Positions 9,532 to 59,620 of a stretch of 64,000 nt of DNA are shown here, one piece after another. This DNA is from an uncultured SAR86 cluster bacterium. Lineage in GTDB: Bacteria > Pseudomonadota > Gammaproteobacteria > Magnimaribacterales > AG-339-G14. The notes beneath the pieces were generated by a model. The model saw nothing but the letters and a program-made list of their open reading frames with translations, did not search any database and had not been told where the DNA came from. A program made the translations under genes and the position numbers. The stretch lies in contig CACOQX010000001.1 of NCBI GenBank assembly GCA_902629465.1, forward strand, positions 17,632 through 81,631, read 5' to 3'. Each line of letters begins with the position of its first letter. The first letter of the stretch is position 1.

Positions 9532-10755
9532 ATGAAGTTTAAAGGCTGGCAAATGGTTTATACCGGGATGATGATGGAATTCTCTGTAGTAGGCTTCATT
9601 TTTTATTGCTTTCCTTTGATGTTTAACGCCTTAGAGAGGGATTTAGGTGCTTCACAATCTCAACTTTCAGGTGCTTTGTCTCTTTGGTTTATAAGTTCTG
9701 CCGTAGCTTCAATTTTTCTTGGAAGATTATTAGATAAATTTTCCATAAAAAAAATAATGATGATTGGGGGAATAATTTTCAGTCTTGGGTTATTTTCCAT
9801 TTCCTTTGTTCAAAGCAGCTTTAGCCTGCTGTTAATCTATGCAACATTGCTTGCTATTGGTGGACCTGCTTTAGGAAATCTTTCTGTTACAAAATTAGTT
9901 GCTAATTGGTTTGAAAGTAATGCCGGCATGGCTCTCGGAATAGCTGCTATTGGTATATCCTTTTCTGGAGTGGTCTTGCCAATTTTAGTTGATCCGCTTA
10001 TCGAAATGATAGGTTGGCGAAACGTTTATATGGTTTTTGGCTTGATAGTAATTTTTTTATTGATTCCAACTGTTAGATATTTCGTAATCGATTCTCCTGA
10101 AGAGATTGGTCAATACAAAGATAATCTTCCTGATCAACCTGCCTTAGATTCTTCTCAAGATTTGATGGAAATAAAGGATTTTTTCAAACATGGCATTTTT
10201 TGGATTATCTCTCTTGCTTTTGCTTTTCAGTTTTTGGCAATGGGAGGAGTTTTACTTCACTTACCTTTGCATTCAGAAAATCAAGGCTTTCTAGGTACTT
10301 GGGCCATTTTAGGTTTTCCTATAAAACAGACTGTCTTCGCATACTCTTTTGCAGCCTTTGGTGGTGTGGTTGGTAAAGTTTTCTTTGGCTATCTCATGGA
10401 TAGATTAAATCCAAATATTCCTGTGATGATCATGATGGCAATGCAATCAATTGGAATCTTTGGTTTAACTTTGATTGATAATTATCTTGTCTTCACAATT
10501 TTTTGTTTTGTTTTTGGTTTAGGATTTGGTGGCGCTATGGTTCTTATGAGCGCTTGTTTTCTGAAAGCTTTTGGTTCACAAAATCTAGGCTCTGTTAGAG
10601 GAGTATCGGCGTTATTAATCGTACCTGTCCAACCCATAGGTATGGTTTTGGTAGGTACAGCTTTTGATTTAAACCTTTATATTGAGTCCTTCTTGTTGAT
10701 GGGAGCAGTTACACTAATTGGTTTTGCGATTGGTTCGAGAATAATTATTCGCTAA
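9532..10755 (+). CDS. MFS transporter
   Basis: 407 aa with about 12 hydrophobic segments and a central hydrophilic loop. The 3' end overlaps the convergent PCD gene by 11 nt. Confidence 0.8.
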
Positions 10756-11086
10756 ACAAAGCATCCGTTTTAGCGGCTGCTATAAAGTCATTCTTATGCA
10801 ATCCTTTAATTTTGTGGGACCACCAATTAACAGTGACTTTTCCCCATTCCAAAATTATTTCAGGATGATGATCTTCTTCTTCTGCGAGATGGGCAACTCT
10901 TTTTAAAAAATCTAGACCCGAAAGATAATCTTTGAAAGCAAAAGCACAAGTAAGTTGTTCTATACCGTCAACCTCTATTAAATCCCAACCGGGAATTTGT
11001 GGCATCAATGTTTTTCTCTCTTCAAGGGTCACTAGAGGAGCGTCAGCTTTACAAGCTACGCATTTTCCTTCGATAAGTTTTTCCAT
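10745..11086 (-). CDS. phhB: pterin-4-alpha-carbinolamine dehydratase
   Basis: 113 aa with the PCD/DCoH signature around EEEDHHPEI. Its ATG shares nt 11086 with the fumC TAA (TAATG). Confidence 0.85.
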   Translation of the reverse strand: MEKLIEGKCVACKADAPLVTLEERKTLMPQIPGWDLIEVDGIEQLTCAFAFKDYLSGLDFLKRVAHLAEEEDHHPEIILEWGKVTVNWWSHKIKGLHKNDFIAAAKTDALFSE

Positions 11087-12495
11087 TAATTGATTCCACC
11101 TTTAGTTAATTTTGCCGGATTTAATAATTTTTGTAATTTAGCTTTTGATATGTTCGTTTCTTCCAAGGCAACATCGATTATTGCTCTATTTTCTTTATAA
11201 GCTTTTTTTGCTATAGCTGCTGCTTTTGCATAGCCTATGATGGGGTTTAAAGCTGTAACCAAGATAGGATTTTTATCCAAAGATGCTTGAATAGATTTTT
11301 GATTTACCTTGAAAGTTTTTATGGCTTTAGATGCCAAAACATTCATGCCGCCACTTAAAATATTTATGCTCTTTAAAAGATTGTATGCAATTACGGGTAA
11401 CATAACGTTGAGCTGAAAGTTTCCTGATTGTGCGCCAATACTAATGGCAACATCATTTCCAATAACATCAGCAGCAACCATTGCCACTGCTTCTGGAATG
11501 ACTGGGTTAACTTTCCCAGGCATGATGCTACTTCCAGGTTGTAGAGCTTGAAGTTCAATTTCTGATAAGCCTGCCAAAGGACCGCTGTTCATCCAACGGA
11601 GGTCATTTGAGATTTTTAATAAAATAGTTGCTAAGTTTTTTAGCTCTCCAGAAACTTGAACAGCAGTATCTTGAGCACTTAATTCATGAAAAAAATTATC
11701 GCTTGGAACATTTTTGCATTTTCCTCCACTTAACTTATTTAATTCTTTAGCAAATAACTTTGCAAATCTTGGATGAGCATTAATACCTGTTCCAACTGCA
11801 GTCCCGCCTAAGGGCATCTCCAGCATTCTTGTTTCTAAGAACAAAAGAGTTTTTTTTGAATTTTTTAATTGAGCTATCCAAGCAGAAAGTTCTTGACGAA
11901 AATCTAATGGCATTGCATCCATCAAATGAGTTCTTCCTGTTTTTACCAAACCTTTTAAAGAATTTGCTTTTTTTTCAGTAACCTCAATAAGTTTATCCAA
12001 TGCAGGAAGAAGTTTTTTAGTTAGATCCATGTGTGCGCTTACCTTTATTGCGGTTGGAATAACATCATTACTGCTTTGACTCATGTTTACATCATCATTA
12101 GGGTCAATAAGTGTTTTAGCAAATTTGCTAGCCAAATTAGCTATGACTTCATTGGCGTTCATATTTGAACTAGTACCTGAGCCTGTTTGAAAAACATCTA
12201 TCGGGAATTGTTTGTTATGTTTGCTCTGCCAAACCTCTTTTGCAGCTTTTGATATAGCATTGGCCTTCTTAGAAGATATAAGACCAAGTGATTTATTAGC
12301 TCTAGCAGCAGCATCTTTTATAATACCCAGTGAGTCGATAAATGAATTAGTGAAAGGAAAATCCATTTTAATTCCACTAATCGGGAAATTATCAATTGCT
12401 CTTTGGGTTTGTGCTCCATATAAAGCAGAATTAGGAACGTAGACCTCACCCAAACTATCTTTTTCTATTCTGAAACCTTTTCTTTTCTTGGGCAT
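11086..12495 (-). CDS. fumC: class II fumarate hydratase (fumarase/aspartase superfamily)
   Basis: 469 aa with GSSIMPGKVNP. GAQTQR and SQSSND favour FumC over AspA. Confidence 0.82.
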   Translation of the reverse strand: MPKKRKGFRIEKDSLGEVYVPNSALYGAQTQRAIDNFPISGIKMDFPFTNSFIDSLGIIKDAAARANKSLGLISSKKANAISKAAKEVWQSKHNKQFPIDVFQTGSGTSSNMNANEVIANLASKFAKTLIDPNDDVNMSQSSNDVIPTAIKVSAHMDLTKKLLPALDKLIEVTEKKANSLKGLVKTGRTHLMDAMPLDFRQELSAWIAQLKNSKKTLLFLETRMLEMPLGGTAVGTGINAHPRFAKLFAKELNKLSGGKCKNVPSDNFFHELSAQDTAVQVSGELKNLATILLKISNDLRWMNSGPLAGLSEIELQALQPGSSIMPGKVNPVIPEAVAMVAADVIGNDVAISIGAQSGNFQLNVMLPVIAYNLLKSINILSGGMNVLASKAIKTFKVNQKSIQASLDKNPILVTALNPIIGYAKAAAIAKKAYKENRAIIDVALEETNISKAKLQKLLNPAKLTKGGIN

Positions 12496-22686: not shown

Positions 22687-22962
22687 TTACAAAGACTCTC
22701 TAAGTTTTTTTGATGCTTTAAAAGAAACAACATTTCTATCGGAGATTTTATATGGTTCGCCTGTTTTTGGATTTCTTCCAGGTCTACTTTTTTTATGCTT
22801 AACAACAAAATTTCCAAGCTTTGGAATTTTTATTTCTTCTCCTCTTTCTAAGCCTTTACTAATTTCCTCGAAATAAGCATTAACTATTTTTAAACAATCT
22901 TTTTTTGGAAGGCCCAACTGCTCTCTTAATACATCTACTATATTTGCCTTTGTTTGGGTCAT
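22687..22962 (-). CDS. ihfA: integration host factor subunit alpha
   Basis: 91 aa with the HU/IHF fold signature GFGNF-like (LGNFVVKHKKSRPGRNPKTGE). Confidence 0.9.
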   Translation of the reverse strand: MTQTKANIVDVLREQLGLPKKDCLKIVNAYFEEISKGLERGEEIKIPKLGNFVVKHKKSRPGRNPKTGEPYKISDRNVVSFKASKKLRESL

Positions 22963-24982
22963 TTATCTTAAAGTTGCTCCAAGGTTTTTTTGCATATTGG
23001 AAATAATAAGATTAGCTTCTTCATTAATCTCTTCTTCAGATAAAGTTTTTTTATTTGAGCCCCATGAAACCCTAAATGCAATACTTTTTTTTGCCATCAG
23101 GAATATTTTTACCATCGTAAACATCAAAAATTTTTGTGCCAACCAAAAAATTTTTTGATGAAATATGAATGCAATTTTCTATCTGTTCGTATGAAACTTT
23201 ATTATCTATTTCAAAAGAAAAATCTCTTTGAGATATGGGATAAATTGAAGGCGCTATTAATTTTCCAAGATCATTTCTTGGTAAAGATTCAACCTTTATT
23301 TCAAAATATAAGAAAGCTTTATTAAGTCCAAGTGATTTTATAAACCTTGGATTGATGCTCCCAAGAGAACCAACGAGCTTATTTTTTATATAAATGTCTG
23401 CAGACGCGTAAGGATGTAATAAATCATTCTGAGATTTTTTCCAGAATATTTTCTCTATTCTGAATTCTGCAAAGAGGTTTTCCAAGATTCCTTTCAAATA
23501 GTAAAAATCATAATTTTGATTTGTATTCCAATTTTTAAATTTTTCATCATCGTAAATTAATCCAGCAAGATTTAACTCTTCCGTATGAGTATCGTTTGAG
23601 AAGGATTTACCCATCTCGAAAATACTTAAGAAATTTTGCCCTCTATTGATATTAAATTCTAAATTTGTTGCCAAGCTGGGTAGTAAAGAAGTTCTTAAAG
23701 TGTTTAAAGAATTATTAAGAGGATTTTTTATAGAAATACTTTCGTTTTCTATGTCTAAATTTTTCAAAATCTGTCTATCAAGAAAAGAATAGTTTATGAC
23801 TTCATTGAATCCTTTATTTATCATAAAAGTTTTGACCTCATTGATAAAATCGTAATCTGATTTTTCATAGTGCTGAGTTATTGGGTCGTTTTTAATTTGA
23901 GGTAAATTGTCATAACCAACAATTCTTGCAACCTCTTCAATTAAGTCCTCTTTAATTGATAAATCAAAACGATGGCTAGGTACTTCGAAAGTTAAAAAGT
24001 TTTTATTTTTTTTGATCAATTTAATTTCAAGTCTATTCAAAATAGACTTGATTGTATTTTCTTTAAGTTCAGTCCCAAGTTTAAGGTTCACGTCGTCTGT
24101 GGAAATGTTTATGACTTTTTTCTTAGGAAAATGCTTATTTTTTATTGTCTCTACATTAGAAATATCCACCTGGTAAATTTCTTGAATAATGGCGAGTGCC
24201 TCTTTTAAAGCATCCTCATGCAGATTAAAATCAACACCTCTTTCAAATCTTTGTGAAGCGTCAGTTTGAAACCCATATCTTCTTGCTTTTCCTTTAACAA
24301 TGCTGGGACGAAAAAAAGCAGATTCGATTAGAAAATTTTGTGTTTTTTTAGAAACTGAATGATTTAAACTTCCTGATATTCCCGCAAAAGCGATAGGTTC
24401 TTTTTCATCGGCAATAACAAGGCAGTCTTTAGAAAGTTTAAGATTCTTTTCGCCTAAAATTTTTATTTGTTCTTTTGTTTTTGCAAACCTAACTTCAATA
24501 TCTCCCTCAATTTTATCTTGATCAAAGACATGCATTGGCTGACCGCTTTCTAACATGACAAAATTCACAATATCCACTAAAGGATGGATGGATTGAATCC
24601 CAGCCGCTTTAAGAGTCTTTTTTATATAATTCGGAAACTTCTTTATTAATTTTAAATTTGAAATAGAAACGGCTGAGTAAGCTGGACATGCATCTTTTGC
24701 AAATAATTTAATTTTTTTATTAAATTTTGTTTGCCCTTTGAAAGATTTTTTTGTTACTGAAGAAAATTTTTTATCTTTGAATGCACAATAATCTCTCGCT
24801 AAACCTTTTACAGAAAAGCAATCTCCCCTATTAGGAGTTAAATCAAAATCAATTATCTTATCTCCTTGAAAAGACTTTATCTCATCAACTTCTATGCCTA
24901 TTAATGTCAGGTCCTCGCACAGATTCTCAATTTTTGGTTTAGCCTTAATAGCCTTAGTAATATTTGAATATAAAACTTTCAT
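22963..24982 (-). CDS. pheT: phenylalanine--tRNA ligase beta subunit, interrupted by a 1-nt frame error in an A8 run; lacks the B2 tRNA-binding domain
   Basis: The ORF-track frame 23072..24982 shows B1, B3_4 (TPNRGDCFS), B5 and B6/7 similarity and stops at TAG 23072. Skipping one A at 23085-23092 restores GKKSIAFRVSWGSNKKTLSEEEINEEANLIISNMQKNLGATLR*, ending at TAA 22963-22965 and abutting the ihfA ATG. Confidence 0.9.
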
Positions 24983-24984
24983 TG

Positions 24985-25962
24985 CTATTGAGATAGAAAT
25001 TTTATGTCATTTGAAAATAGAGATCGCATATCTTCTATTTCATAAGAAAGCTTAGCCATTCTTTCGATTCCCATTCCAAAAGCAAAGCCGGAAAATTTCT
25101 TAGATTCCAAACCTGCCATATCTATTACGTTAGGATGTACTAAACCACAGCCCATGATTTCTAGCCAATTTTTGGACTTTTTATCCATAATATCCACTTC
25201 TGCAGAAGGTTCTGTAAAGGGAAAATAAGAAGGTCTAAACCTAACTTTGGTATCTGGCCCAAAAAAGAAATCTATGAAGGTCATAATTTCATTTTTAAGA
25301 TGGCCAAAATTAACATTTTCGTCAATAACTAGACCTTCTATTTGATGAAACATAGGCGTATGTGTTTTATCTGCATCACTTCGATAAACTTTTCCAGGAC
25401 AAATAATTTTTAAGGGTGCGCCTCTCTTTTCAATGGATCTTATTTGAACAGGAGAAGTATGTGTTCTCAAAAGATTTCCATTATCTAAATAAAAGGTGTC
25501 GTGCATATCGCGAGCAGGATGATCTTTGGGAATATTCAAAGCATCAAAATTATAATAATCACTTTCAATCTCAGGACCATCTTCAATCAAGTATCCCTTG
25601 GATGAAAAGAAATCTGTAATTCTTTTGGTGGTTATTGTCAAAGGATGGAGCTTACCTTGAGATTTAAACGTGCCTGGAAGGGTTACGTCTATTCTATCTT
25701 TTTCAAGCGATTCGTTGATAATTTTTAATTCAATCTTTTCTTGGAAAGAGTCTAAAAGGTCTTCACAAAGACTTCTTAATTCACCAATTCCTTTACCGAA
25801 AATTGGTCTTTCTTTTGAAGGTAAGTTTTTAATGTTTTTTGAAAGTTCAGTAATCTGCCCTTTTTTTCCAAGATACTTAACTTTGAGTTGATTTAATTCC
25901 TCTTGAGAGACTATTTCTTGAAAATCTTTAACAAGATTTGCTTTTAAAGCATCTAAATCCAT
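24985..25962 (-). CDS. pheS: phenylalanine--tRNA ligase alpha subunit
   Basis: 325 aa with class II aaRS motifs (HPARDMHDTFY, FRPSYFPFTEPS, GFAFGMGIERM). Confidence 0.96.
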   Translation of the reverse strand: MDLDALKANLVKDFQEIVSQEELNQLKVKYLGKKGQITELSKNIKNLPSKERPIFGKGIGELRSLCEDLLDSFQEKIELKIINESLEKDRIDVTLPGTFKSQGKLHPLTITTKRITDFFSSKGYLIEDGPEIESDYYNFDALNIPKDHPARDMHDTFYLDNGNLLRTHTSPVQIRSIEKRGAPLKIICPGKVYRSDADKTHTPMFHQIEGLVIDENVNFGHLKNEIMTFIDFFFGPDTKVRFRPSYFPFTEPSAEVDIMDKKSKNWLEIMGCGLVHPNVIDMAGLESKKFSGFAFGMGIERMAKLSYEIEDMRSLFSNDIKFLSQ

Positions 25963-25968
25963 GCTTCA

Positions 25969-26325
25969 TTATGCGACATTTTCCTTGGCAAGAGATACTA
26001 AATTAGAAAAAGCTTCACTATCTTCAGCAGCTAATTCAGCAAGCACGCGTCTATCTAAATCTATATTCATTTTCTTTAAAGCCGACATGAACTTGCTATA
26101 AGTCAAACCGTTTTCTCTTACTGCTGCATTGATTCTTATAATCCATAAAGACCTGAAGTCTCTTTTTTTAACTCTTCTGTCCCTGTAAGCATACTGACCA
26201 GCTCTAGTGACTGCTTGCTTTGCAACCTTAAAAGTCCGGCTCCTAGCTCCTCTGTATCCTTTAGCTAGTTTTAGAACTTTTTTATGTTTTCTACGAGATT
26301 CGACTCCTCTTTTAACTCTAGCCAC
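25969..26325 (-). CDS. rplT: 50S ribosomal protein L20
   Basis: 118 aa, [27 protein letters not shown]. Confidence 0.97.
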
Positions 26326-26522
26326 TATGATCTCTCCCTGAACATTCTTTTTACTAGTTTTTCATCTCCATCAGCAAGTGAAGTTGTCCCCCTAAGTTGT
26401 CTTTTGGACTTAGTAGACATTTTAGTAAGAATATGCCTTTTATTAGCATGTTTTCTTTTCAAGCCAGTTCCAGTTTTTTTAAACCGTTTTGCGGCACCGC
26501 TATGTACTTTTATCTTAGGCAT
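26325..26522 (-). CDS. rpmI: 50S ribosomal protein L35
   Basis: 65 aa, [20 protein letters not shown]. Confidence 0.95.
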
Positions 26523-27111: not shown

Positions 27112-29040
27112 TCAAACCTCCTTAGATTCAATTTTTTTAGTTAAAATTTCACTAAATGCCTCTATCGACATTGAGCCTAAATCAGATCCTTTTCTGTCTC
27201 TAATAGCCAACGAAGATGATTCTATTTCCTTATCTCCTAAAACTATGATGAAAGGAATTTTTTGCATAGAGTGGTGGCGGATTTTATAAGCGATTTTCTC
27301 ATTCCTCAAGTCTGAATTTACTCTAAATCCTTTATTTTTGAGAATATTAGTAATTTCTTTGGTTTTTTCAGCATGTTTTTCAGATATATTTATTGCAACA
27401 GCCTGAATTGGTGCTAACCATAAAGGAAACTCTCCTGCATATTGCTCAATGAGTATTCCTATAAATCTTTCGAAAGAACCTAAAAAAGCCCTATGCAACA
27501 TTACCGGGACATGTCTTTCACCGTCTGTTCCTACATAAGATGCGTCTAATCTCTCAGGCATATTGAAATCTGCTTGCAAAGTACCGCACTGCCACTCTCT
27601 ATTTAAAGAGTCGGTAAGAACAAAATCTATTTTTGGACCATAAAAAGCTCCATCTCCTTCTGCAATTTCATAAGATATGCCTTGCTTATTGATAGCAGCC
27701 TCTAAGGCCTTTTCAGCTTTATCCCAAATTTCATCTGCTCCTACTCGTCGCTCAGGTCTGGTCGACAACTTTATATCCAACTTATTAAAACCTAATTCAT
27801 TATATATTTCTGAAAGAATATTAATAAAAGATCCGGCCTCCTCTTCAATTTGGTCTTCAGAACAAAAGATATGGCCATCATCCTGAGTCATTTGTCTTAC
27901 TCTCATCAGACCATGCAAAGTTCCTGAAGGTTCATACCTATGACAAGAACCAAATTCTGAATATCTTATAGGTAAGTCTCTGTAAGATTTCAAACCTTGG
28001 TTGTATACTTGAACGTGACAAGGACAACTCATTGGCTTCAAAGCATTTACTCTTTTTTCGTTAGCTTGCTCCTCATCGATTTCAGTTATGTACATATTTT
28101 CTCGGTATTTATCCCAATGGCCAGATTTTTCCCAAAGTTTTCGATCTACAACCTCCGGAGTTTTTATTTCTTCATATCCCGAAATAATCAGCTTATCTCT
28201 TATGTAATCTTCTAATATCCTAAATATAGTCCAGCCTTTTGGATGCCAAAAAACCATTCCAGGCGCTTCTTCTTGAAAGTGAAATAAGTCGTATTTTTGA
28301 CCTAATTTTCTGTGATCTCTTTTTGAAGCTTCTTCTAAATTATAGATATATTGCTTTAATTCTTTATCTGTATTCCATGCAGTACCATATATTCTTTGAA
28401 GCATTTTTCCTTTTGAATCTCCTCGCCAATATGCTCCAGATACGTTTAACAATTTAAAACTTTTTAAATGTCTCATTGAAGTGACATGCGGACCCTTGCA
28501 CATGTCGATGTATTCTTCATGATAGTAAAGAGCGATAATTTCTTCTTCGGGAATATCGTCAATTATTTTGAGCTTGTATTCTTCTTTTCTATCCTTAAAA
28601 ACTTTTTGAGCTTCTTTTCTGGATACTATTTTTTTTATAACTTTGTACTCTTTTGAGGCAAGCTCTCTCATTCTATCTTCTATCTCAATCAAATCTTCTT
28701 CAGTTAATTTTTTTTCTAAATCAATATCGTAATAAAAACCATCATCAATAACTGGACCTATTGCCATCTTTGCTTCTGGATAAATTTGTTTAAGAGCGTG
28801 ACCAAATAAATGAGCACAAGAATGCCTTATGATTTCTAAGCCTTCTTGATCAGAATTTCTTATGATTTCTAAAGAACAATCTTTTTCCAAGAGATCAGAA
28901 CCGTCTTTCAATACACCATCTACCTTTCCAGCAATGGTAACTTTAAAGAGGCCTTTGCCTATATCAGCAGCAACATCTTCAATTGAAATTGATGAATCAA
29001 AAGATCTTTTGGAGTTGTCTGGAAGTGTTATTGTGACCAT
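27112..29040 (-). CDS. thrS: threonine--tRNA ligase
   Basis: 642 aa with a TGS domain, editing domain (HSCAHL) and class II core ([18 protein letters not shown]). Confidence 0.97.
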
Positions 29041-29087
29041 AATTTTGACCTATACGAGGGGCCTAAAAGCTTATTATATCCAAAATA

Positions 29088-29687
29088 TTAGGGCGATAAA
29101 AGATGACTGCTCCACTTTCGATTATCTGAAAGAATATATTTAAGTCTTTCATGAGTTCTATTATCTCGCTCTTGCCAGAACTCAACCGCATTTGGAATTA
29201 CGGTATACAGACCGCAATGATCGGGTCTTTTTATTGAAGATTCGTCATTTTGCTCAAGGTAATTATCTATTTGATTTGTTAAATCTTCATAGGAAGAAAT
29301 CGTCGAACTTTGATTAGAAATGATTGCGGATACTCTTGATTTCAGCGGTCTTGAATTAAAATAATCATCAGAATCTTCTTCAGATCCTTTTTCGATAAAT
29401 CCTTCTATTCTGATTTGTTTTTTTAATTCTCTCCACCAAAAATTCAATGCAACTTTGGGATTTAGCTCGATCTCTTTTCCCTTTCTGCTATTGTAATTTG
29501 TATAAAACATCAATCCGTCATCTGATATTTTTTTTAAAAGAACCATTCTTGAACTGGGTTGGTTCATTTGATCTACAGAAGAAATATTCATAGCATTCCA
29601 ATCAACAAGATTTGCAGATTCAGCCTCTTCAAGAGTTTTTAATATCCCAATGAATGGTTCATGAGAAATTTTACCTTTCTCAATCAC
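29088..29687 (-). CDS. pdxH: pyridoxamine 5'-phosphate oxidase
   Basis: 199 aa with RMVLLK, FYTNYNSRKG, IRIEG and a C-terminal LSP. Confidence 0.9.
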   Translation of the reverse strand: MIEKGKISHEPFIGILKTLEEAESANLVDWNAMNISSVDQMNQPSSRMVLLKKISDDGLMFYTNYNSRKGKEIELNPKVALNFWWRELKKQIRIEGFIEKGSEEDSDDYFNSRPLKSRVSAIISNQSSTISSYEDLTNQIDNYLEQNDESSIKRPDHCGLYTVIPNAVEFWQERDNRTHERLKYILSDNRKWSSHLLSP

Positions 29688-30176
29688 TTATTTTCTTCTT
29701 ACCCAATAATCTAAGGATAGATAATTACCTCCTCCAAAAATAAGAGGTATTGCAAGAATCACTATATAAGTGGCTGCCATTTCATATCCGCCTGCATCCG
29801 CATTCCAACCATTTGGAAAATGAAAATAAGCGGCAACAAACATTGCTAAAATAATAGGAACGCTAGCCCATCTTGTAAATAAGCCCATTAATAAAAGAAT
29901 TGCTCCTCCAGCTTCTGCAAAAATTACAAGCCAAGCAAAGAAAGTTGGAAAGATAAAGTTTAAATTGTCAGATCCTCCAGGACCTAAGAATTCAGCAAAT
30001 CTTGGATTCACACTCGGTACTCCATCGTTCCAAGAAAGTTTATTGGATGAAGTGCCTGCTCCCCAAAAAATAAAGAAAAGGTAAATCCTTATAATAAATA
30101 AAATTACAAAATCCAGAAAAACTAGGCTTTTAAGAAAGTCATCGATTTTAAAGAAAACATTTTTAATTAAGTTCAT
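29688..30176 (-). CDS. DoxX-family membrane protein
   Basis: 162 aa with 4 hydrophobic segments and a DoxX-like pattern. Confidence 0.7.
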   Translation of the reverse strand: MNLIKNVFFKIDDFLKSLVFLDFVILFIIRIYLFFIFWGAGTSSNKLSWNDGVPSVNPRFAEFLGPGGSDNLNFIFPTFFAWLVIFAEAGGAILLLMGLFTRWASVPIILAMFVAAYFHFPNGWNADAGGYEMAATYIVILAIPLIFGGGNYLSLDYWVRRK

Positions 30177-30188
30177 AAGGTTAAATTA

Positions 30189-30920
30189 TCACTTTTGATA
30201 TCTTTTTTCTAACTCTTCATAAGCATCTTGTATTTCAATAAATTTTTCTTTAGCTTTTCCAATAAACTCCTCAGGAAGTCCCTTGCCGATGAGGGTATCT
30301 GGATGAAACTCTTTTCTTTTTTTTAAATAAGCTTTTTTTATTTCATTGAAAGAAGCATTTTCATCTACCCCAAGAGTTTTGAAATAATCATTTGATCTAT
30401 CAACAAATTTTTCGTAAAGAGACTCATAAACTTTTTCGTCAAATCTGAAAATTCTTGGAATTTTTTTTAAAAGGTCGTTTTCTTTGGGATGAAGGATGCC
30501 ATCAGCAAGAGCCAATTCAAAAAGCATTTCATAGAAAACTAATAATGAATTTGTACTTGAAGAAAGAATCTGATAAAGATTAGATGCATAAGCTTCAAAA
30601 CTTATATTATCGTCTTTTGCCTTTTGAAAAATGTTAATGGCAAAATTTCTATGTTCTCTGTTCAAGTTCAACTTAACTGAAATGATTTCTTCTATTTTTT
30701 TTATCTCAACTTCATCAACTCTTCCGTCAGCTTTTGCTATTTTTGCAAGACAAGCGAAAAGAGCTGCAAAAAAAGCTACTTGTTGATCAAAATTATTAGG
30801 TTTTCTTCTCTTAGATCTAGATGAAATATTCGAACCGATTACGCTTCCAATTAAAGCTCCAATTGGCCCCATTACAACAAATCCAAGAAGACCACCAGTA
30901 ATACCTCCCCAAATACTCAT
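30189..30920 (-). CDS. djlA: DnaJ-like membrane co-chaperone DjlA
   Basis: 243 aa: Gly-rich N-terminal TM segment, TerB-like middle region, and C-terminal J domain (DYFKTLGVDENASFNEIKKAYLKKRKEFHPD). Confidence 0.8.
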   Translation of the reverse strand: MSIWGGITGGLLGFVVMGPIGALIGSVIGSNISSRSKRRKPNNFDQQVAFFAALFACLAKIAKADGRVDEVEIKKIEEIISVKLNLNREHRNFAINIFQKAKDDNISFEAYASNLYQILSSSTNSLLVFYEMLFELALADGILHPKENDLLKKIPRIFRFDEKVYESLYEKFVDRSNDYFKTLGVDENASFNEIKKAYLKKRKEFHPDTLIGKGLPEEFIGKAKEKFIEIQDAYEELEKRYQK

Positions 30921-30985
30921 AATATAAATGTTTAAATTTCCTGTTTTTTTTGCTTCAATGTACTTTTAAAAGGGGAGATGAACAA

Positions 30986-31399
30986 GTGGCAGAAAAAAGT
31001 TTACCAGCAGTAAGCTATCTCAAAATTCCAGACGATGGGGACCCCTATCTGGAAGGTCATAAATGTGGAGGATGTGGAGCTGTTTTTCTTGGCGAAAGAT
31101 CAGTCTGTTCAAAATGTTTTGCTAGAGATAAAATTTCAACTGTAAAGCTCAAAGATACAGGAGTTCTTCATTCTTTTTCTGTCGTTTATAGGTCTTTTCC
31201 TGGAATCGATGTTCCTTATGTATCAGCAATAGTAGATTTAGATGGTGGAGGAACGGTTAAAGGAAATCTTATAAACATTGAACCTGACCCAGAAAAAATA
31301 AAATTCGGTATGAAGGTAAAACTGATTTATCAAGATGCCCTGGGAAGAAAAGACAAAGAAGGAAACTCTTACTTGAGTTATTTCTTTGAACCAGCATAA
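30986..31399 (+). CDS. DUF35 OB-fold / zinc-ribbon protein (thiolase partner)
   Basis: Start moved to GTG 30986, which follows GGGGAG. Zinc ribbon CGGCG...CSKC precedes an OB-fold region. It sits immediately upstream of the thiolase. Confidence 0.75.
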   Translation: MAEKSLPAVSYLKIPDDGDPYLEGHKCGGCGAVFLGERSVCSKCFARDKISTVKLKDTGVLHSFSVVYRSFPGIDVPYVSAIVDLDGGGTVKGNLINIEPDPEKIKFGMKVKLIYQDALGRKDKEGNSYLSYFFEPA

Positions 31400-31421
31400 A
31401 ATACATTTAAAAGGAGAAATT

Positions 31422-32561
31422 ATGAGTGATGTATACGTTTTGGGAGTTGACATGATCAAGTTTGGAAGATTTCCAGACAGAACTGTGCCAAATATTGGTG
31501 CTGAAGCAGCGTTAATGGCTCTTGACGACGCAGGTTTGACTATAAAAGACATGCAAGCCATGTATTGCGGAAACCTTGGTCAAGCTAATGCAATGGTCGG
31601 TCAAAGAATACTTCAAGAAATAGGTCAAACAGGTATTCCAGTGGTAAATTGCGCAAATGCGTGTGCGACGGGTGCTACTGCCTTTAGAGAAGCATGGATG
31701 TCAATTAAAGCAGATATGTATGACGTAGTTCTCGCTGTAGGAGTTGAGCAAATGGGTAAAGGCCTTCTTGGAGGAGCTGGTGGTGGAGATGGTATTCCAA
31801 AAGAAGGATTGCTAGGTTCAGGAACAATGCCTTGTGTTTTCGCAGAAGCAGGTATGGAACACTCAAAAGAACATGGAACTACTTTTGAGCAGTTTGCAAA
31901 AATTTCAGTAAAAAATCATCATCATTCAACAATGAATCCAAAAGCAATGTATCAAATTGAAACACCCCTTGATGTGGTTATGAATGCTGAAATGATTTCG
32001 TACCCCAATACAAAGCTTATGTGTTCTGTCAACGTAGATGGTTCTGCAGCAGCGGTCTTGGTTTCAGAAAAAAAAGCAAAAGAACTAGGTATGGGAAGAG
32101 CAGTTAAAGTAAGAGCATCCGCTATGGCAAGTGATCCCTATACTGATAGAGACCTTGTAATGCCAGATGTTAATGCTTGTACAAGATTAGCTGCCGAACA
32201 GGCATACGAAATGGCAGGAGTAGGTCCTGAAGATATTAACTTAGTTGAACTTCATGATTGTTTTGCAACTGCAGAAATGCTTCATTATGAAAACTTAGGT
32301 CTTTGTCAGGATGGTGAGGCAGGAAAAATGATAGATGAGGGACATGTAGAACTTGGAGGCAAAGTTCCAGTTAACGTTTCTGGTGGTCTTCTTTCTAAAG
32401 GGCATCCCTTAGGTGCAACAGGAATAGCAAATATTTATGAGGTTTGTACTCATCTGAGAGGTGAAGCTGGAGAAAGACAGGTTGAAGGTGCAACTCTAGG
32501 AATGACACATGTTATAGGTCTTGGAACAGCCTGTGGCATTCATATTCTAGAAAAAGTCTAA
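31422..32561 (+). CDS. SCP-x / nonspecific lipid-transfer-type thiolase
   Basis: Start moved to ATG 31422, which follows AAAGGAGA. Active-site region NCANACATGATAF plus C-terminal HDCFA and GGLLSKGHPLGATG. Confidence 0.85.
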   Translation: MSDVYVLGVDMIKFGRFPDRTVPNIGAEAALMALDDAGLTIKDMQAMYCGNLGQANAMVGQRILQEIGQTGIPVVNCANACATGATAFREAWMSIKADMYDVVLAVGVEQMGKGLLGGAGGGDGIPKEGLLGSGTMPCVFAEAGMEHSKEHGTTFEQFAKISVKNHHHSTMNPKAMYQIETPLDVVMNAEMISYPNTKLMCSVNVDGSAAAVLVSEKKAKELGMGRAVKVRASAMASDPYTDRDLVMPDVNACTRLAAEQAYEMAGVGPEDINLVELHDCFATAEMLHYENLGLCQDGEAGKMIDEGHVELGGKVPVNVSGGLLSKGHPLGATGIANIYEVCTHLRGEAGERQVEGATLGMTHVIGLGTACGIHILEKV

Positions 32562-32564
32562 TTT

Positions 32565-33053
32565 GTGAAAATTGGCGTTACCGGAGATACGCATAATAAT
32601 CTCAAAAACATAAAAAAAATCTGCTCCATTTTTAATCAAAACGGAGCAGAACTAGTATTACATACTGGTGATGTTACTCTACCAAAATCACTCAGTGCCT
32701 TTAAGGATTTGAAATGTCCTTTAATCGTAATCCTAGGGAATAATGATGTTGACGAAAGAGAGGGTTTAGAAGCTGTATCATCAGATTTTAAATGCAGTAT
32801 TTTTGATGAGCCCTTTTCAACCGAGTTAGATCAGATAAAAATTTCAGTGGTTCACCATCCGGATTTGATTGACATTAAAATGCTTGAAAATAATGACTTG
32901 ATCTTACATGGTCATACTCACAGATATAGACTGGAAGAAAAAGAAGGATGTTTAATTTTTAATCCAGGAGAGTGTGCAGGATTCCTAAAAAACAAAAATA
33001 ATATTGGCATAATTGATCTTCAAGAATTAATTCCCAAAATTATTAGTTTTTAG
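32565..33053 (+). CDS. YfcE/MJ0936-family metallophosphoesterase
   Basis: 162 aa with GDTHNN, HTGDV, GNND and HGHTH motifs. Confidence 0.8.
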   Translation: MKIGVTGDTHNNLKNIKKICSIFNQNGAELVLHTGDVTLPKSLSAFKDLKCPLIVILGNNDVDEREGLEAVSSDFKCSIFDEPFSTELDQIKISVVHHPDLIDIKMLENNDLILHGHTHRYRLEEKEGCLIFNPGECAGFLKNKNNIGIIDLQELIPKIISF

Positions 33054-33342
33054 CCTTAAATCTATTGATGCTCAGAGTTACTAGAAAACTGATTACGAAA
33101 GTAGCAATAAATGGTCTTATGAGCCTGAATATTCCATTTTCAGGTAAAACAAAAAGCTCAAGAAAAAATATAGATAAAATTGGTGCCAAATTATTTGAAC
33201 CAGGATAAGTAAACCAAAAACTACACAACATAGAGAAAGAAAAACTAAAAATAAATATCTTAAAAAGCTGTCTTTTTGCAAATAAAGACACAAGATATGA
33301 AATTAGAATCGAGAGGAGAACGTAAAAAATAAAAAAAATCAT
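33043..33342 (-). CDS. small hydrophobic membrane protein
   Basis: 99 aa, almost entirely hydrophobic. Its start shares nt 33342 with the rnd stop. No family recognised. Confidence 0.45.
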   Translation of the reverse strand: MIFFIFYVLLSILISYLVSLFAKRQLFKIFIFSFSFSMLCSFWFTYPGSNNLAPILSIFFLELFVLPENGIFRLIRPFIATFVISFLVTLSINRFKAKN

Positions 33343-34202
33343 TAAAAAAACTCTTTCATAAAACTTTCTACAAAATCAGAGTCTCCGATTATTTTCATAA
33401 GCTTTCTTTTATAATCTTTTTCTTCTTTTACAATTTTGCTTAGCTCTGAAATAAACTTATCTTTGCAGATAAAGCTTATAGGTAAATTTGCTTCCATCGC
33501 AATTTTTTCTCTCCATAAAAATATTTTTTTTTCTTTAGGCGAAAACTTAGAATTTATTTTTGAAAATCTTGAACTGCTTAAATCTTGACTGCCAAGTTTG
33601 ATTTCATGTTGAGATTCTTTAAAAGTTTCTGGTAGCTTGTCTACATTATTTAATACTTTTTTTTGAAAAAAATGAATGTCTAGCAAATAATCCACATCAG
33701 CTGCAGCATAAGTAATTTGCTTGTCGGTTAAAGGTCGTCTTAACCAATTTGAATTTGTTTCTGATTTATTTAATTGAATCGAGAAATATTTAAATACTAT
33801 TTCTGCATAATTTTTAATTTTTCCTGCATCAAGTATTTTTTCTGCAACTTGTATATCGAAAACGTTTTTAATTTTAATATTTAAACAATTGAATATTACC
33901 GTTGCATCACTTCTACATGAATGAAAAATTTTTAAGTAGGTAGGATCCTCTAAATATTTTTTTAATAGGTTCCTTGCGTCAAAAGACAGACAGTCTATTA
34001 TGAATATCTTTTTTTTTGTCCCAATTTGAATTAAAGATAAATTAGGAAAATAAGTTCTTCGCCAGTCAAATTCTGTATCTACAGAAAGAATTTTTTCTTT
34101 ATCTATTGTTTTTTTTAGCTGAGAATAATCGCTATCCTTTTTTAAAAAAAAAATTTGTTTTTTTTTCTTAAAATAACTTCTAATTTTATGTTTAAAAATC
34201 AT
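33342..34202 (-). CDS. rnd: ribonuclease D-like 3'-5' exonuclease (short form)
   Basis: 286 aa with DEDDy motifs VDTEFDW, HSCRSD and YAAADVDYL. ATGA overlap with galU. Confidence 0.8.
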   Translation of the reverse strand: MIFKHKIRSYFKKKKQIFFLKKDSDYSQLKKTIDKEKILSVDTEFDWRRTYFPNLSLIQIGTKKKIFIIDCLSFDARNLLKKYLEDPTYLKIFHSCRSDATVIFNCLNIKIKNVFDIQVAEKILDAGKIKNYAEIVFKYFSIQLNKSETNSNWLRRPLTDKQITYAAADVDYLLDIHFFQKKVLNNVDKLPETFKESQHEIKLGSQDLSSSRFSKINSKFSPKEKKIFLWREKIAMEANLPISFICKDKFISELSKIVKEEKDYKRKLMKIIGDSDFVESFMKEFF

Positions 34203-35089
34203 AAATCTTTTAAAAATTTTAGGATGTCTTTTTTGATTTCTTTATTAGAAAAAGATAAAGCCAAATTAGCTTTCAAGTAATCAGTCCATTCCCCACAATC
34301 ATAATATTCATCTTCATAGATATATCCGACAACTTTATTCTCGGACAATATGTATTCATGAATAGCATCTGTAAGTTGTATTTCTTGATTTGTATCTGGA
34401 TTTATTGATTCAAGATATTTAAAAAAATTATTTTTAAAAATATATCTACCTACTGCAAATAAATTAGAGGGGGCTTTTTTTAAAGATGGCTTTTCAAAAA
34501 TTTTTTCAATATCGCCATATTTTATGCCTTCAGATTTTATGATTTTTTTTAATTTTGCTACCCCATATGAAGTGATTTTATTTTTTGGAGCACGGGCTAA
34601 AAGAATTGAGGAGTGATTATTAACTTCAAAATTATTTTTCATTTTCTTAAAGAATATTCTTTTTTTATTTTCTAATGAGTCAGATAAGATCATATCGGGC
34701 AGGACTACTCCGAAAGGCTCATTGCCTATTAATTTTTTAGCAATTAAAACCGCATGTCCTAGTCCTAAGGCTTCCCCCTGACGTATGCTTGAAATATTCA
34801 AATCCAACTTTGAGATTGCTTTTATTTCTCTAAGCTTTGACCTTTTCACTCTCTTCTCTAAAGTTGCTTCTAACTCAAAACTTTTATCAAAATGATTTTC
34901 TATCGAATATTTGCTGGAATGAGTAACAAATATTACCTCTTTAAATCCCGAGAGTGCTATCTCCTCGACAATATACTGAATAATAGGTTTGGAGAAAATA
35001 GGAAGCATTTCTTTGGGAATTGCTTTTGTTGCAGGAAGAAGTCTAGTTCCTAACCCGGCAACCGGAATAATTACTTTGTTAACTCTCAT
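34199..35089 (-). CDS. galU: UTP--glucose-1-phosphate uridylyltransferase
   Basis: 296 aa, IIPVAGLGTRLLPATKAIPKEMLPI. Confidence 0.9.
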   Translation of the reverse strand: MRVNKVIIPVAGLGTRLLPATKAIPKEMLPIFSKPIIQYIVEEIALSGFKEVIFVTHSSKYSIENHFDKSFELEATLEKRVKRSKLREIKAISKLDLNISSIRQGEALGLGHAVLIAKKLIGNEPFGVVLPDMILSDSLENKKRIFFKKMKNNFEVNNHSSILLARAPKNKITSYGVAKLKKIIKSEGIKYGDIEKIFEKPSLKKAPSNLFAVGRYIFKNNFFKYLESINPDTNQEIQLTDAIHEYILSENKVVGYIYEDEYYDCGEWTDYLKANLALSFSNKEIKKDILKFLKDL

Positions 35090-35872
35090 TTATTTAGATT
35101 CATTTTTTTCATAATAATAAAGTCTTTCAATATCTTCCTCTGTAGTTGCATCTCCGTACTGAATTTCAATAATTACACAATCTTTATTTGTATCGTTGAT
35201 TATTTGATGCCACTCTCCCTTTTTTACAAAAAAAGTATCGTGTTTTCTTAATTTATGCTCTTCTACCTTTTTAGGATCTTGTTTTGAATACCTAACCTTG
35301 CAACTGCCTTCCTTGATAAACCATATTTCATTCCTTTTAAAATGTCTCTGGAAGCTCATTCCCTTCCCTTTCAAAACGTTTAGTTCCTTTACCTTGGTAT
35401 TATTATTTGCATAAATGTCAAAAAAACTCCCCCAAATTCTTTTTTCTTCCTGATGATTCCATTTTTTTAAAATTGTACTGCTTGAATTAAGTTTATTATT
35501 ACCTCCAACTCCAAACTGAAATTTAATGTTGGTAAGACTCATCTCTGGAATATTTTTTTTTGTTCTATCTCCTCCATTGCAGAATATTATCTGTTGATTC
35601 GGATAACTTGAAGAAATTGACTTCAAGGCATTTATTACACTTCCTGAGTCATCATCTTTAAAAGATATTACTTCATCTACGTTTTTTAGATTTTCCAGAA
35701 TTTCTTTTCTTTCTTCAAAAGGTAAAAAGAATTTACCTTTCTTCTTAATTAACCATGCGTCACTGTTAAGAGCAACAATTAGCTTATCGCCGTAATTTGC
35801 AGCGCTATTTATATAAGAAATATGTCCGGAATGAACTGGATCAAACCCTCCGCTTACTACAGAAATTTTCAT
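35090..35872 (-). CDS. fusion: HldC/RfaE-domain-II-like nucleotidyltransferase + type-II phosphomannose-isomerase-like cupin
   Basis: The N-terminus (SGGFDPVHSGH, LIVALNSDAWL) resembles heptose-1-P adenylyltransferase. The C-terminus (RIWGSF...KGKGMSFQRHFKRNEIWFIKEG) resembles the ManC C-terminal cupin. Confidence 0.7.
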   Translation of the reverse strand: MKISVVSGGFDPVHSGHISYINSAANYGDKLIVALNSDAWLIKKKGKFFLPFEERKEILENLKNVDEVISFKDDDSGSVINALKSISSSYPNQQIIFCNGGDRTKKNIPEMSLTNIKFQFGVGGNNKLNSSSTILKKWNHQEEKRIWGSFFDIYANNNTKVKELNVLKGKGMSFQRHFKRNEIWFIKEGSCKVRYSKQDPKKVEEHKLRKHDTFFVKKGEWHQIINDTNKDCVIIEIQYGDATTEEDIERLYYYEKNESK

Positions 35873-35896
35873 GACTAAAATAGAGTTTTAGATAAG

Positions 35897-37090
35897 TTAC
35901 ATTTTATCATCTAAATATCTACTTTTTTCTTCATGCTGGAAGTCAGGAAGGATATCAAAAAAAAGTTTTAATATGTCTCGTTTAGTCCACGTTCCTTTTT
36001 CAGATAGTTTTTCTAATGAATTTAAAAAATAAGTCATTGACTCCTTATTTGAAGCCGTCTTATTTTTTATAACCCCAATAGATTTATATGTTTCCAAATC
36101 AAGAATCTCTGATGAATCATAAAATTCTTCAATAAATTTCTCTCCAGTTGTATCACTTTGTTCAAAATAACATGGCCACTTACCCTTTGAAATAAGATCT
36201 TCCGCATTTCTTCTTGCCTCTTCTTCCGTGCTGCATTCATATGGTTCATAGCCTAAAAGAGAAATGTATTTTTTTGCAATGGTTGTAAAATCATATAAAT
36301 CAGATTCTTTAGACATTTTGGGAAAGAAAATATCTCTATTTTCTCCCATGAGTCCTGATAAGACACATAGCTCTCCGGATTCCTCTTTTGTCAGTAAGTA
36401 TCTCTTTATATTTGTTGGTGCAGTTATAGGTTGTTTTTTTTTGTATCGTTGATTAAACCCAAAAAGAAGAGAGCCATCAGAAAAAGCAACATTTGCGAAC
36501 CTTGCAGAGGAAACATTATGAGAGATGCCTTTATCAAATAACATTCTTTCCATTATGATTTTTGTTGCTCCCATGAGATTCTCAGGATTGGTTGCCTTGT
36601 CAGTAGATACAGAAAAATAATTTTTCAAATTTTTATCTTTGATCATCTTAAGAAGTTTAGATAAAAAGGTTATGTTTACCTTAATCATCCTCATTAAGGA
36701 ATAAGGATCCTTTTCACTTCTTACATGCTTTAAGGCAGAAAAATTAAATATGTAATCATATGGTTCAGTTTCATTAAAAAATACTTCAAACTCTCTTGAG
36801 CCGTAGTCAATGCAAAAAGTTTTAAACTCTCCTGTTATGTAACCTTTGCTACTTCTTAAATCTCTCACGAGTTCAACTAAATTATTTTCGCTGATATCGA
36901 CAACATTAAGAACTTTTGGGTTTCTAAAAAAAATTTTCTTTGTTACGGCTTGTCCGATTGTTCCAGCGGCTCCGATAATTAAAAAACTTGAATTCTCTAT
37001 CTCTTCAGACAAGAGATCTTCATTTTTTTTAAAATCTTCTTTAAATATTGAACGATTTCTGTTTAACAAATCATATGGGTTGATATTCAA
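35897..37090 (-). CDS. soluble WbpM/PglF/CapD-family NDP-HexNAc 4,6-dehydratase
   Basis: 397 aa with Rossmann IIGAAGTIGQA and STDKATNPENLMGATK, i.e. Met in place of the SDR Tyr, as in WbpM/PglF (from memory). Confidence 0.75.
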   Translation of the reverse strand: MNINPYDLLNRNRSIFKEDFKKNEDLLSEEIENSSFLIIGAAGTIGQAVTKKIFFRNPKVLNVVDISENNLVELVRDLRSSKGYITGEFKTFCIDYGSREFEVFFNETEPYDYIFNFSALKHVRSEKDPYSLMRMIKVNITFLSKLLKMIKDKNLKNYFSVSTDKATNPENLMGATKIIMERMLFDKGISHNVSSARFANVAFSDGSLLFGFNQRYKKKQPITAPTNIKRYLLTKEESGELCVLSGLMGENRDIFFPKMSKESDLYDFTTIAKKYISLLGYEPYECSTEEEARRNAEDLISKGKWPCYFEQSDTTGEKFIEEFYDSSEILDLETYKSIGVIKNKTASNKESMTYFLNSLEKLSEKGTWTKRDILKLFFDILPDFQHEEKSRYLDDKM

Positions 37091-57381: not shown

Positions 57382-58532
57382 TTTTTTTTAATTATGGGAG
57401 AACTAGGAAGATTTATGAGCCTTTCCCAAATATTTTGCGAAACGGTTAAATCCGTTGGGAAACAATTTTTGAACATTGGCAAGGCATTCATTAAACTCCA
57501 GGCGGGCCTTACATAAATTTTTCTTTTATTTAAATAATTGATCATTCTTTTTCTTTCTTTAATGTTTGGAGCCAAAATAGCATTTAACCAATAATTAGAA
57601 CGTGCTTCCGGAGGTTCTTTAAAAAATAGATAATCGCTTCCGTCATAAAAATCTTTATATAAATTTGCAATTTTTCTCTTAGAAGAAATATATTTATCAA
57701 TTTTTTTTAGCTGGGATATGCCTAAAGAAGCATTTAAGTTAGGTAACCGATAATTATATCCAATAGCGTCATGGAAAAATTCTAGAGGATTTTTTTTTGC
57801 TGTGGTGGATAAATGCCTTGATAATGTTCCCGCTTTTTTGGACTTACATATAAGTGCTCCACCCCCTCCAGTAGTAATGATTTTATTTCCATTAAAGCTT
57901 AAAGTTCCAAAGTTACCAAATGTCCCCGTATGCTTATTTTTATAAGTAGTGCCTAGACTCTCCGCGGCGTCTTCAATAACTTTTACATTTTTTTTTCTAC
58001 AAATATTTATAATTTTGTCTATCAGTGCAGGATGTCCATAAGTGTGCATTACAATCAAAGCTTTTATTGGTCTTTTAGACTTTTTTTCTAAACAAGTTCC
58101 AAATTTATTCATTACAGTATGTTCGTCAAAAAATTCTTTTAATTTTTCGGGGCAGATGCTGAGAGTTTTAGGTGAAATATCAATAAATATTGGGTCTGCC
58201 AAGAGGTAAGAAATACAATTTGCAGCCGCAACGAAATTAAATGCTTGTGAGATAACAAAATCATTTTTCTTTACTCCGCTCATGATGAGCGAAAGATGTA
58301 AAGCTGAAGTTCCATTTACAGTAGAAACTACATCTGTTGCATTTGTATATTTCTGTAACTTGATTTCAAATTTCGAAACATTTTTTCCGTAGGTAGAAAC
58401 ATATGAACTTTTTATGGATGATGTAACAGAACTTATGTCCTCTTTAGAAAAATAAGGTTCATGAAGGCTTATGTCTTTCTTGCCTCTGTAAATTTCTCTT
58501 ATAAAGCTTTCTGAATCTTTTAAAACATTCAT
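57378..58532 (-). CDS. DegT/DnrJ/EryC1/StrS-family sugar aminotransferase (LegC/PglE-like)
   Basis: 384 aa with the PLP-lysine region SFNGNKIITTGGGG. Confidence 0.9.
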   Translation of the reverse strand: MNVLKDSESFIREIYRGKKDISLHEPYFSKEDISSVTSSIKSSYVSTYGKNVSKFEIKLQKYTNATDVVSTVNGTSALHLSLIMSGVKKNDFVISQAFNFVAAANCISYLLADPIFIDISPKTLSICPEKLKEFFDEHTVMNKFGTCLEKKSKRPIKALIVMHTYGHPALIDKIINICRKKNVKVIEDAAESLGTTYKNKHTGTFGNFGTLSFNGNKIITTGGGGALICKSKKAGTLSRHLSTTAKKNPLEFFHDAIGYNYRLPNLNASLGISQLKKIDKYISSKRKIANLYKDFYDGSDYLFFKEPPEARSNYWLNAILAPNIKERKRMINYLNKRKIYVRPAWSLMNALPMFKNCFPTDLTVSQNIWERLINLPSSPIIKKK

Positions 58533-59455
58533 TTAGCTTTATTATTAGAACTGTAAATGGCCCAAACTATTGAAATAATTAAACCTATAAGAAAACCAAA
58601 TATTCCAAGAGAAAGTCTTGAAGGGTAGGATTTCTTTTCAGGTACAAAGGGTTTATCGATAATTTCCAATAAGTACTCATCTGAAATTTCAGTCATCATT
58701 TTCACTTCGAGTTGCTTTTCAATCAGTTTTGAGATTGATTTATTGAGAAAATCTAAAGAATTTTTTGCTGACTCCATTTGCAAGAATAATATCGCTTTTT
58801 CTGCATTCTCTTTGTCTCTCGATCTTGAGATTAGGTTGATTTCTCTGATAATTACATCGAGTAGATTTTTAGAAAAAACTGGAGAAATATGTTCGGCTGA
58901 CATCTTTATATGCCCCGTAAGTTTATTTTTGCTGATTTTAAATACTTCCTTGATATAGACTTCATGAGCTTCAAGATAAGAAGGTTTTTCTTTTTCAGAA
59001 AAAAATGATTTTTTTTTCCATATTTTTTGTCTTGAATCATACAAAGATTCATCAAATTCTAATATATTGTCAATTGAATTAAACTGCTTTGGAGCCATAA
59101 GCGATGGCAAAACCCATTCATACTTATATATCAAAGTTTCTAAAAAGGACCTTGAAGTAGATATAGCAATTGCCAAATCAGCTTTTTCGTCTCCAGATAA
59201 AGCTTCACCAACTCCAAAAGAAGCTGCTAATCCAGCTAACTCAGAAAACCCGGCCTGAGAATCATTCAAGTTATCATTTGAAACTGCCAATAAAGATTCA
59301 GATTTATAGTAATTTGGTATAAATAAAGAAAATAAAGAAAACAAAATCATTAAAAGAAAAGAAGATAAAAGTATAAAAAGCGATCTATTCCTTATTATAT
59401 GAATAAGGTTTTCAATATTTAACTTGCTATTATTTTCTTGGCCTTCAAAGTTCAT
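58529..59455 (-). CDS. wzz: polysaccharide chain-length determinant (Wzz, PCP-1 type)
   Basis: 308 aa with TM segments at both ends, a coiled-coil-like middle and no kinase domain. Confidence 0.75.
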   Translation of the reverse strand: MNFEGQENNSKLNIENLIHIIRNRSLFILLSSFLLMILFSLFSLFIPNYYKSESLLAVSNDNLNDSQAGFSELAGLAASFGVGEALSGDEKADLAIAISTSRSFLETLIYKYEWVLPSLMAPKQFNSIDNILEFDESLYDSRQKIWKKKSFFSEKEKPSYLEAHEVYIKEVFKISKNKLTGHIKMSAEHISPVFSKNLLDVIIREINLISRSRDKENAEKAILFLQMESAKNSLDFLNKSISKLIEKQLEVKMMTEISDEYLLEIIDKPFVPEKKSYPSRLSLGIFGFLIGLIISIVWAIYSSNNKAK

Positions 59456-59460
59456 AACTG

Positions 59461-59547
59461 TGGTACCTGGGGCCGGACTTGAACCGGCACGAAGTTGCCT
59501 TCGAGGGATTTTAAGTCCCTTGTGTCTACCAATTCCACCACCCAGGC
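59461..59547 (-). tRNA. tRNA-Leu (anticodon UAA), CCA encoded
   Basis: Reverse complement: GCCTGGGTGGTGGAATTGGTAGACACAAGGGACTTAAAATCCCTCGAAGGCAACTTCGTGCCGGTTCAAGTCCGGCCCCAGGTACCA. Has a long variable arm and anticodon loop CTTAAAA. Close to E. coli leuZ (from memory). Confidence 0.95.
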
Positions 59548-59583
59548 TTTGGAGAGTACTTTATACTAAATTCATAATAATAG

Positions 59584-59613
59584 TTTATAGAAATCTCTCA
59601 TAGATTCTATCAA
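59584..59613 (-). promoter_or_regulatory. candidate sigma70-type promoter between tRNA-Cys and tRNA-Leu
   Basis: On the minus strand: TTGATA (59613-59608), 18-nt spacer, TATAAA (59589-59584). Matches like this arise easily by chance in DNA this AT-rich. Confidence 0.25.
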
Positions 59614-59620
59614 GTTTAAA

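Follow-up and report, generated by a model that had tools for sequence, protein, structure and literature searches.

How should a single-nucleotide frame error in pheT, an essential gene, be read: as a slip in the recorded sequence, as a real indel in the organism, or as a site of recoding? The question arises in a stretch of 64,000 nucleotides from an uncultured SAR86 cluster bacterium (hereafter the window). Its GC content is 32.3%, against 36.4% in HIMB1674, the only SAR86 isolate, which this difference excludes as the source; the genomes nearest to it belong to the SAR86 cluster of marine Gammaproteobacteria and were assembled from single cells or metagenomes. The 67 ORFs of the window lie close together, with 96.7% of the sequence coding, and the sole unexplained gap beside a broken gene is the 109 nt that follow a premature stop in pheT. 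The affected gene lies in the block thrS-infC-rpmI-rplT-pheS-pheT-ihfA-merR, the order and gene lengths of which are the same in three related loci (L016-L018), the length of pheT excepted. Scans for promoters and terminators around the pheT site returned nothing above shuffled expectation.

The lesion itself is simple (Table 1). A T8 run with C and G flanks on the plus strand of the window corresponds to A8 on the coding strand, and the minus-strand codons CCT GAT GGC AAA AAA AAG TAT TGC ATT TAG lead from this run to a stop four codons later (TAG, 23074-23072), the unrepaired protein ending in ...PDGKKKYCI. From the start of pheT to the stop at 22963 there are 2,020 nt, a multiple of three plus one. 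Deletion of one A from the run yields a protein of 672 aa with the C-terminus ...PDGKKSIAFRVSWGSNKKTLSEEEINEEANLIISNMQKNLGATLR, closed by TAA at 22965-22963, which the ihfA ATG at 22962 adjoins without a gap (TAAATG). The preliminary description of this DNA had proposed that pheT is split by a 1-nt frame error in the A8 run; removal of the one A bears this out, and the positions it gave for the TAG, the T8 run, the TAA and the ihfA ATG were each found to be exact on re-reading.

Table 1. Features at the pheT lesion and in the rnd region, in window coordinates
Feature	Position	Strand	Description
ihfA	22687..22962	-	91 aa; NF001401 IHF alpha
pheT +1-frame tail	22963..23085	-	40 codons S633-R672 (SIAFRVSWGS...GATLR) plus TAA at 22965-22963
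A8 homopolymer	23085..23092	-	Frameshift site within GGC AAA AAA A/AG (slash, point of shift); one A more than the A7 of relatives
pheT zero-frame ORF, unrepaired	24982..23072	-	636 aa; residues 1-632 native, then K-Y-C-I
pheT junction reading			Repaired ...NIPDGKKSIAFR versus unrepaired ...GKKKYCI
pheS	24985..25962	-	325 aa, intact, directly upstream of pheT; TIGR00468
99-aa ORF	33043-33342	-	1-nt overlap with rnd; very hydrophobic, reads as a membrane protein
rnd	33342-34202	-	286-aa short RNase D, C-terminal HRDC region missing

Several profile searches indicate what the premature stop removes. In the unrepaired protein, Pfam recognises the B3_4 and B5 domains, the tRNA_synthFbeta core and only positions 1-58 of the 94-position FDX-ACB domain (46.6 bits). 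After repair, the FDX-ACB match spans 1-94 of 94 at 91.1 bits; this domain (B8) is complete only after removal of one A, and the repaired gene encodes a regular member of bacterial PheT, with B3_4, B5, a catalytic-like core and a full FDX-ACB domain. The NCBIfam equivalog TIGR00472 (pheT_bact) responds in the same manner: the matched span extends from 158-761 to 158-798 of the 798 profile positions, and the score is 590.6 bits with the repair versus 554.7 without it, both above the curated cutoff of 402.65. The repaired tail also reaches the C-terminal end of solved PheT chains (2rhs_B, 710-800 of 800), in an alignment that includes FDVYEGEHLEKGKKSVAIRL against FDVYDGKNIPDGKKSIAFRV, and the 40-aa tail is near-identical to the C-termini of the 72 closest homologues.

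That the shifted frame holds the rest of the PheT FDX-ACB domain had been proposed earlier, together with an HMM search of that frame as a check. Pfam, TIGR00472 and the PDB alignment all agree with the proposal, and the 40-aa tail by itself matches FDX-ACB positions 55-94 of 94 at 33.8 bits, above the cutoff of 31.1. Judged by these matches, the restored tail is genuine PheT sequence and no chance match, and can be assigned to the C-terminal part of the FDX-ACB (B8) anticodon-binding domain that is absent from the unrepaired product. The break point falls inside a ferredoxin-like fold, at FDX-ACB position 58 of 94, and removes 40 of the 94 domain residues; a domain truncated in this way would presumably not fold. 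In the PheRS of Thermus, the FDX-ACB domain stacks on the anticodon base G34 (PMC9976931).

At its other end, the protein departs from the family for a reason of its own. The N-terminal B1-B2 (tRNA_bind) region gave no Pfam tRNA_bind hit and only a weak B1, and the TIGR00472 match begins at profile position 158. E. coli-type PheT is roughly 795 aa long and carries an N-terminal tRNA-binding module. The SAR86 proteins, namely that of the window and those of its relatives (P0001-P0072 and L001-L012), are of a short 672-aa form without the B2 region, and the SAR86 clade appears to have lost the N-terminal tRNA-binding module of PheT. Because the closest homologues in the clade are also 672 aa long (71 of 72), this shortness is unrelated to the frameshift. 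Compared with bacterial PheT as modelled by TIGR00472, the window gene is thus alike in reaching the full end of the profile after repair and differs by its short N-terminus.

The decisive question is whether any relative shares the A8 run. Among the 72 closest PheT homologues (65-91% identity), all but one are 672 aa long, the exception being 674 aa, and every one of the 72 reads uninterrupted from ...[GD]KKS[IV]A[FI]R... through to ...LR. At the nucleotide level, an alignment of orthologous pheT 3' ends, which the preliminary description had suggested as a check, gives the same answer in all 12 related SAR86 genomes (L001-L012): GGN or GAT is followed by AAA AAA AGT, that is, A7. The run GGN AAA AAA AGT of the relatives encodes Gly-Lys-Lys-Ser. 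The TAAATG junction between pheT and ihfA is likewise present in 11 of these 12, L010 having a 2-nt spacer. Three further SAR86 PheT homologues (P0073, P0075 and P0078) are cut to 381-441 aa, with aberrant C- or N-termini, P0075 ending in ...NPKNVFTPKLSYKFSI; this suggests frameshifts or contig breaks elsewhere in other SAR86 assemblies.

Evidence from the same population is more direct. An exact-sequence look-up of the IhfA protein of the window led to short metagenome contigs of the same population, sampled independently by Tara Oceans, JGI and others. Seven such contigs, from separate samples, match the window at 98.1-99.9% identity over the site, each of them with A7. Among the samples with contigs at ≥99.8% identity are JGI 3300027774 and TARA SAMEA2622923, SAMEA2622715 and SAMEA6000907. 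One of them, L049, shows no mismatch to the window in 1,137 bp, and two others, L052 and L055, show one mismatch each; in all three, the extra A is the only gap. The flanks of the run in the near-identical A7 contigs are the same as those of the window. A degenerate scan of a metagenome collection across the SAR86 clade found the A8 allele in no contig and the A7 pattern in 27, a result of limited power on its own, as the scan missed L049, which was later recovered by protein look-up. Counting every locus fetched that holds the site, A7 is present in 50 of 50 and A8 in none. Since this count includes the near-identical contigs, the A8 frameshift is, on the sequences compared, private to this one assembly.

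Elsewhere in the window, at 10200-11830, 25470-26480, 28840-36180 and 58190-63290, identity to metagenome contigs is 99.8-100% over kilobases, and these contigs stem from many ocean samples (Tara Oceans, JGI and others). The strain or population represented by the window is therefore widespread.

The window shows no general weakness at homopolymers. A/T homopolymers of at least 8 nt inside ORFs number 82 in 64 kb and reach 10 nt, and 68 of the 82 are poly(A) runs on the coding strand, a very high density of coding homopolymers. All the same, 81 of these runs are in frame, and the pheT run alone breaks its frame. Further near-identical contigs were obtained through exact look-ups of L20, MerR, PhhB, DoxX and PgsA; unique window sequence thus covered amounts to 17.7 kb at ≥97% identity, 16.3 kb of it at ≥99%. 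Of the A/T runs of 7 nt or longer, 58 were open to comparison in the 17.7 kb, and no indel of any kind appeared there except in the A-run of pheT. The preliminary description had observed that longer homopolymers in neighbouring ORFs keep their frames and that systematic homopolymer error is not evident; the 81 other runs in frame uphold the first observation and, together with the indel-free remainder of the 17.7 kb, the second. No second homopolymer error was found nearby, either among the 81 other runs or in the comparison with contigs over 17.7 kb. All ORFs with a clear NCBIfam equivalog match it end-to-end, among them guaA, guaB, photolyase, thrS, infC, pheS, rplT, galU, neuB, neuC, uvrC and ggt. 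A search of the 67 ORFs for other split genes, by stop-to-stop frames and NCBIfam coverage, recognised none, with about 25 ORFs that have no family hits lying outside the reach of the method. The event is sporadic, not a systematic homopolymer problem. The absence of systematic error is no argument against a single sporadic error, and the accuracy of the window fits a single technical error as well as it fits a single real mutation.

A second frameshift was suspected in rnd, the ORF of which matches positions 4-252 of the 363-position RNase D model TIGR01388 and is followed by a small ORF (Table 1). This candidate was rejected because the relatives are alike: rnd is 286-287 aa long in L016, L017, L018 and L071, and a small ORF (100 aa) follows it in two of the four (L017 and L018). 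On the minus strand, from about 35900 to 59620, lies a cluster of about 24 kb for glycan and nonulosonic-acid biosynthesis. It includes genes for NeuB, NeuC, a LegC-type aminotransferase, a PseF-like cytidylyltransferase and the WbuX/HisH/WbuZ amidotransferase, as well as formyltransferase and dTDP-glucose dehydratase-like genes and several ORFs without family hits. One contig (L076) follows the window at 99.9% identity down as far as position 59619, beside pgsA, and then carries different genes, whereas another (L077) stays with the window sequence; by this pattern, the cluster looks like a strain-variable surface-glycan island.

Programmed recoding of pheT would mean an evolved +1 ribosomal frameshift, or a programmed transcriptional realignment, yielding a short and a long product or regulating PheRS. 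It can appeal to nothing beyond the slippery A-run and a shifted frame that is open to a proper stop. These features the site does share with programmed +1 frameshifting of the prfB type and with the programmed A-run slippage of dnaX and IS elements, which likewise combine a slippery A-run of Lys codons with an open +1 frame. Programmed frameshift sites are conserved among orthologues, however, and the frameshift is present in 0 of 50 related loci. Near-identical contigs carry A7 with the same flanks, so there is no co-evolved stimulator; no GGAGG-like motif or other Shine-Dalgarno-like stimulator lies upstream, and the A-site codon is Lys AAG, neither a stop nor a hungry codon. The zero-frame product, moreover, would be without part of a single fold, not without a separable domain, and has no plausible function of its own. 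Given this lack of conservation, programmed recoding and a maintained, slippage-rescued indel are effectively refuted, and we consider programmed recoding extremely improbable. A functional split gene, in which a 636-aa PheT would do without the final 40 residues or pair with a tail peptide translated on its own, is scarcely conceivable. A TTG-initiated ORF of 59 aa (23142..22963) does cover the tail, but it was rejected as a separately translated unit, its first 19 residues being out-of-frame junk that overlaps pheT; the break lies inside the ferredoxin-like fold, and no relative examined has such an arrangement. The preliminary description had left three explanations open, namely a sequencing or assembly error, a real indel rescued by slippage and +1 recoding. 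With all 50 loci at A7, a private event, be it error or real indel, stands, while conserved +1 recoding or a maintained slippage-rescued indel does not.

Between the two kinds of private event, the choice is less clear-cut. A genuine slip-strand mutation from A7 to A8, private to the sampled cell, clone or population, is a reading that we hold to be unlikely, though worth serious consideration. The cell would either have been doomed by a fresh loss of function or have lived on a trickle of full-length PheT, supplied by an RNA polymerase that drops one A or by a +1 slip of tRNA-Lys on AAA-AAA-A, neither of which would be an evolved mechanism. Elsewhere the sequence is clean, so that no error model singles out the pheT site, and A7/A8 runs are natural hotspots of replication slippage; against these points, none of the 50 other loci has A8, not even the seven at 98-99.9% identity, and the metagenome scan found no A8 either. 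Rescue has some attraction in that +1 re-pairing of tRNA-Lys on A8 would give the ancestral G-K-K-S exactly, and low-level rescue of homopolymer indels is known in endosymbionts and in herpesvirus thymidine kinase (PMC5009743). The frame can be restored from A8 only if the mRNA loses one A or gains two, or if the ribosome slips by +1. Measured across the transcriptome, slippage in A/T runs is overwhelmingly by addition (PMC5574713), which makes a 1-nt deletion on a run of 8 the disfavoured direction; deletions inside homopolymers are rare, and of all deletions they make up <1% in E. coli and, in Buchnera, 16 of 57 (PMC5574713). Classical bacterial transcriptional slippage occurs on runs of 9 A or T (PMC5009743), and the pheT run, at 8 nt, falls below this usual threshold of at least 9. 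No Shine-Dalgarno-like motif or slow codon stands beside the site (CCT GAT GGC AAA AAA AAG TAT), and because poly(A) tracts of this length or longer occur 68 times on the coding strands of the window, high slippage at A8 would harm many genes. Nor does the indel persist across strains, as the seven contigs at 98.1-99.9% identity all have A7. That A8 is real in a viable cell, with leaky rescue by a one-base polymerase deletion or a tRNA-Lys +1 slip supplying enough PheT, is quite improbable.

The poly(A) frameshifts of Buchnera and Blochmannia, as they are cited in PMC5009743 and with the rates given in PMC5574713, bear a superficial likeness to the pheT lesion. They too concern AT-rich, streamlined genomes with many poly(A) runs, and an indel in a coding poly(A) tract that a change of run length in the mRNA can correct. 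In the endosymbionts, however, the tracts are longer, the populations are tiny and bottlenecked, and the frameshifts persist across strains, whereas the window presents an 8-nt run in which a deletion, the rare direction, is needed, in a free-living ocean bacterium whose conspecifics lack the indel.

Taken as a whole, the evidence makes it probable that the A8 run of pheT is a one-off error of sequencing, amplification or assembly. The variant occurs in a single assembly, and the independent data agree on A7, as a technical error would have it. The single-base deletion that restores both the 672-aa length of the homologues and the TAAATG junction supports the same reading. A population could hardly carry A8, because the gene is essential and single-copy and the FDX-ACB domain, which contacts the tRNA anticodon (PMC9976931), would lose 40 of its 94 residues. 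Two points weigh against a technical error: the window is otherwise very accurate, so that nothing points to an error-prone platform, and if the mutation were genuine and private, it would present exactly the same picture. On balance, we infer a technical cause rather than a real mutation in the sampled DNA. An ordinary SAR86 pheT with the conserved A7 would then have been recorded as A8, through a slip at the homopolymer during sequencing, during whole-genome amplification (from a single template) or during consensus building or contig merging. The extra base would shift the frame and produce four wrong codons, the TAG and the loss of the last 40 residues. The true gene of the organism would be an intact 672-aa pheT, with neither recoding nor rescue involved. 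As far as the evidence goes, A8 is not a biological feature.

Such a technical error has familiar counterparts in the sporadic homopolymer errors of draft, single-cell and metagenome-assembled genomes, which are often annotated as frameshifted pseudogenes. As in those cases, a single base is changed in an A/T run of a conserved essential gene, the change is seen in one assembly only, and taking one base out restores the length of the orthologues. The pattern expected of an error-prone platform differs, as ORF and contig checks found no second error in the 64 kb.

For annotation, these results mean that pheT is best regarded as an intact gene or flagged as a probable frameshift error, and that neither the label of pseudogene nor that of recoding candidate is appropriate; in tallies of essential genes or of completeness for this SAR86 genome, it should not be counted as lost. 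The analysis also demonstrates a quick form of triage, in which exact-protein look-ups of neighbouring genes lead to near-identical environmental contigs and thereby to the allele of the population. Were A8 to be confirmed, the locus would offer a modest test of whether slippage can rescue a gene in a free-living bacterium with an AT-rich genome. Leaky rescue, if true, would extend the 'polymerase infidelity rescue' of endosymbionts to a bacterium that is abundant and free-living in the ocean and has very many poly(A) runs in its coding sequence.
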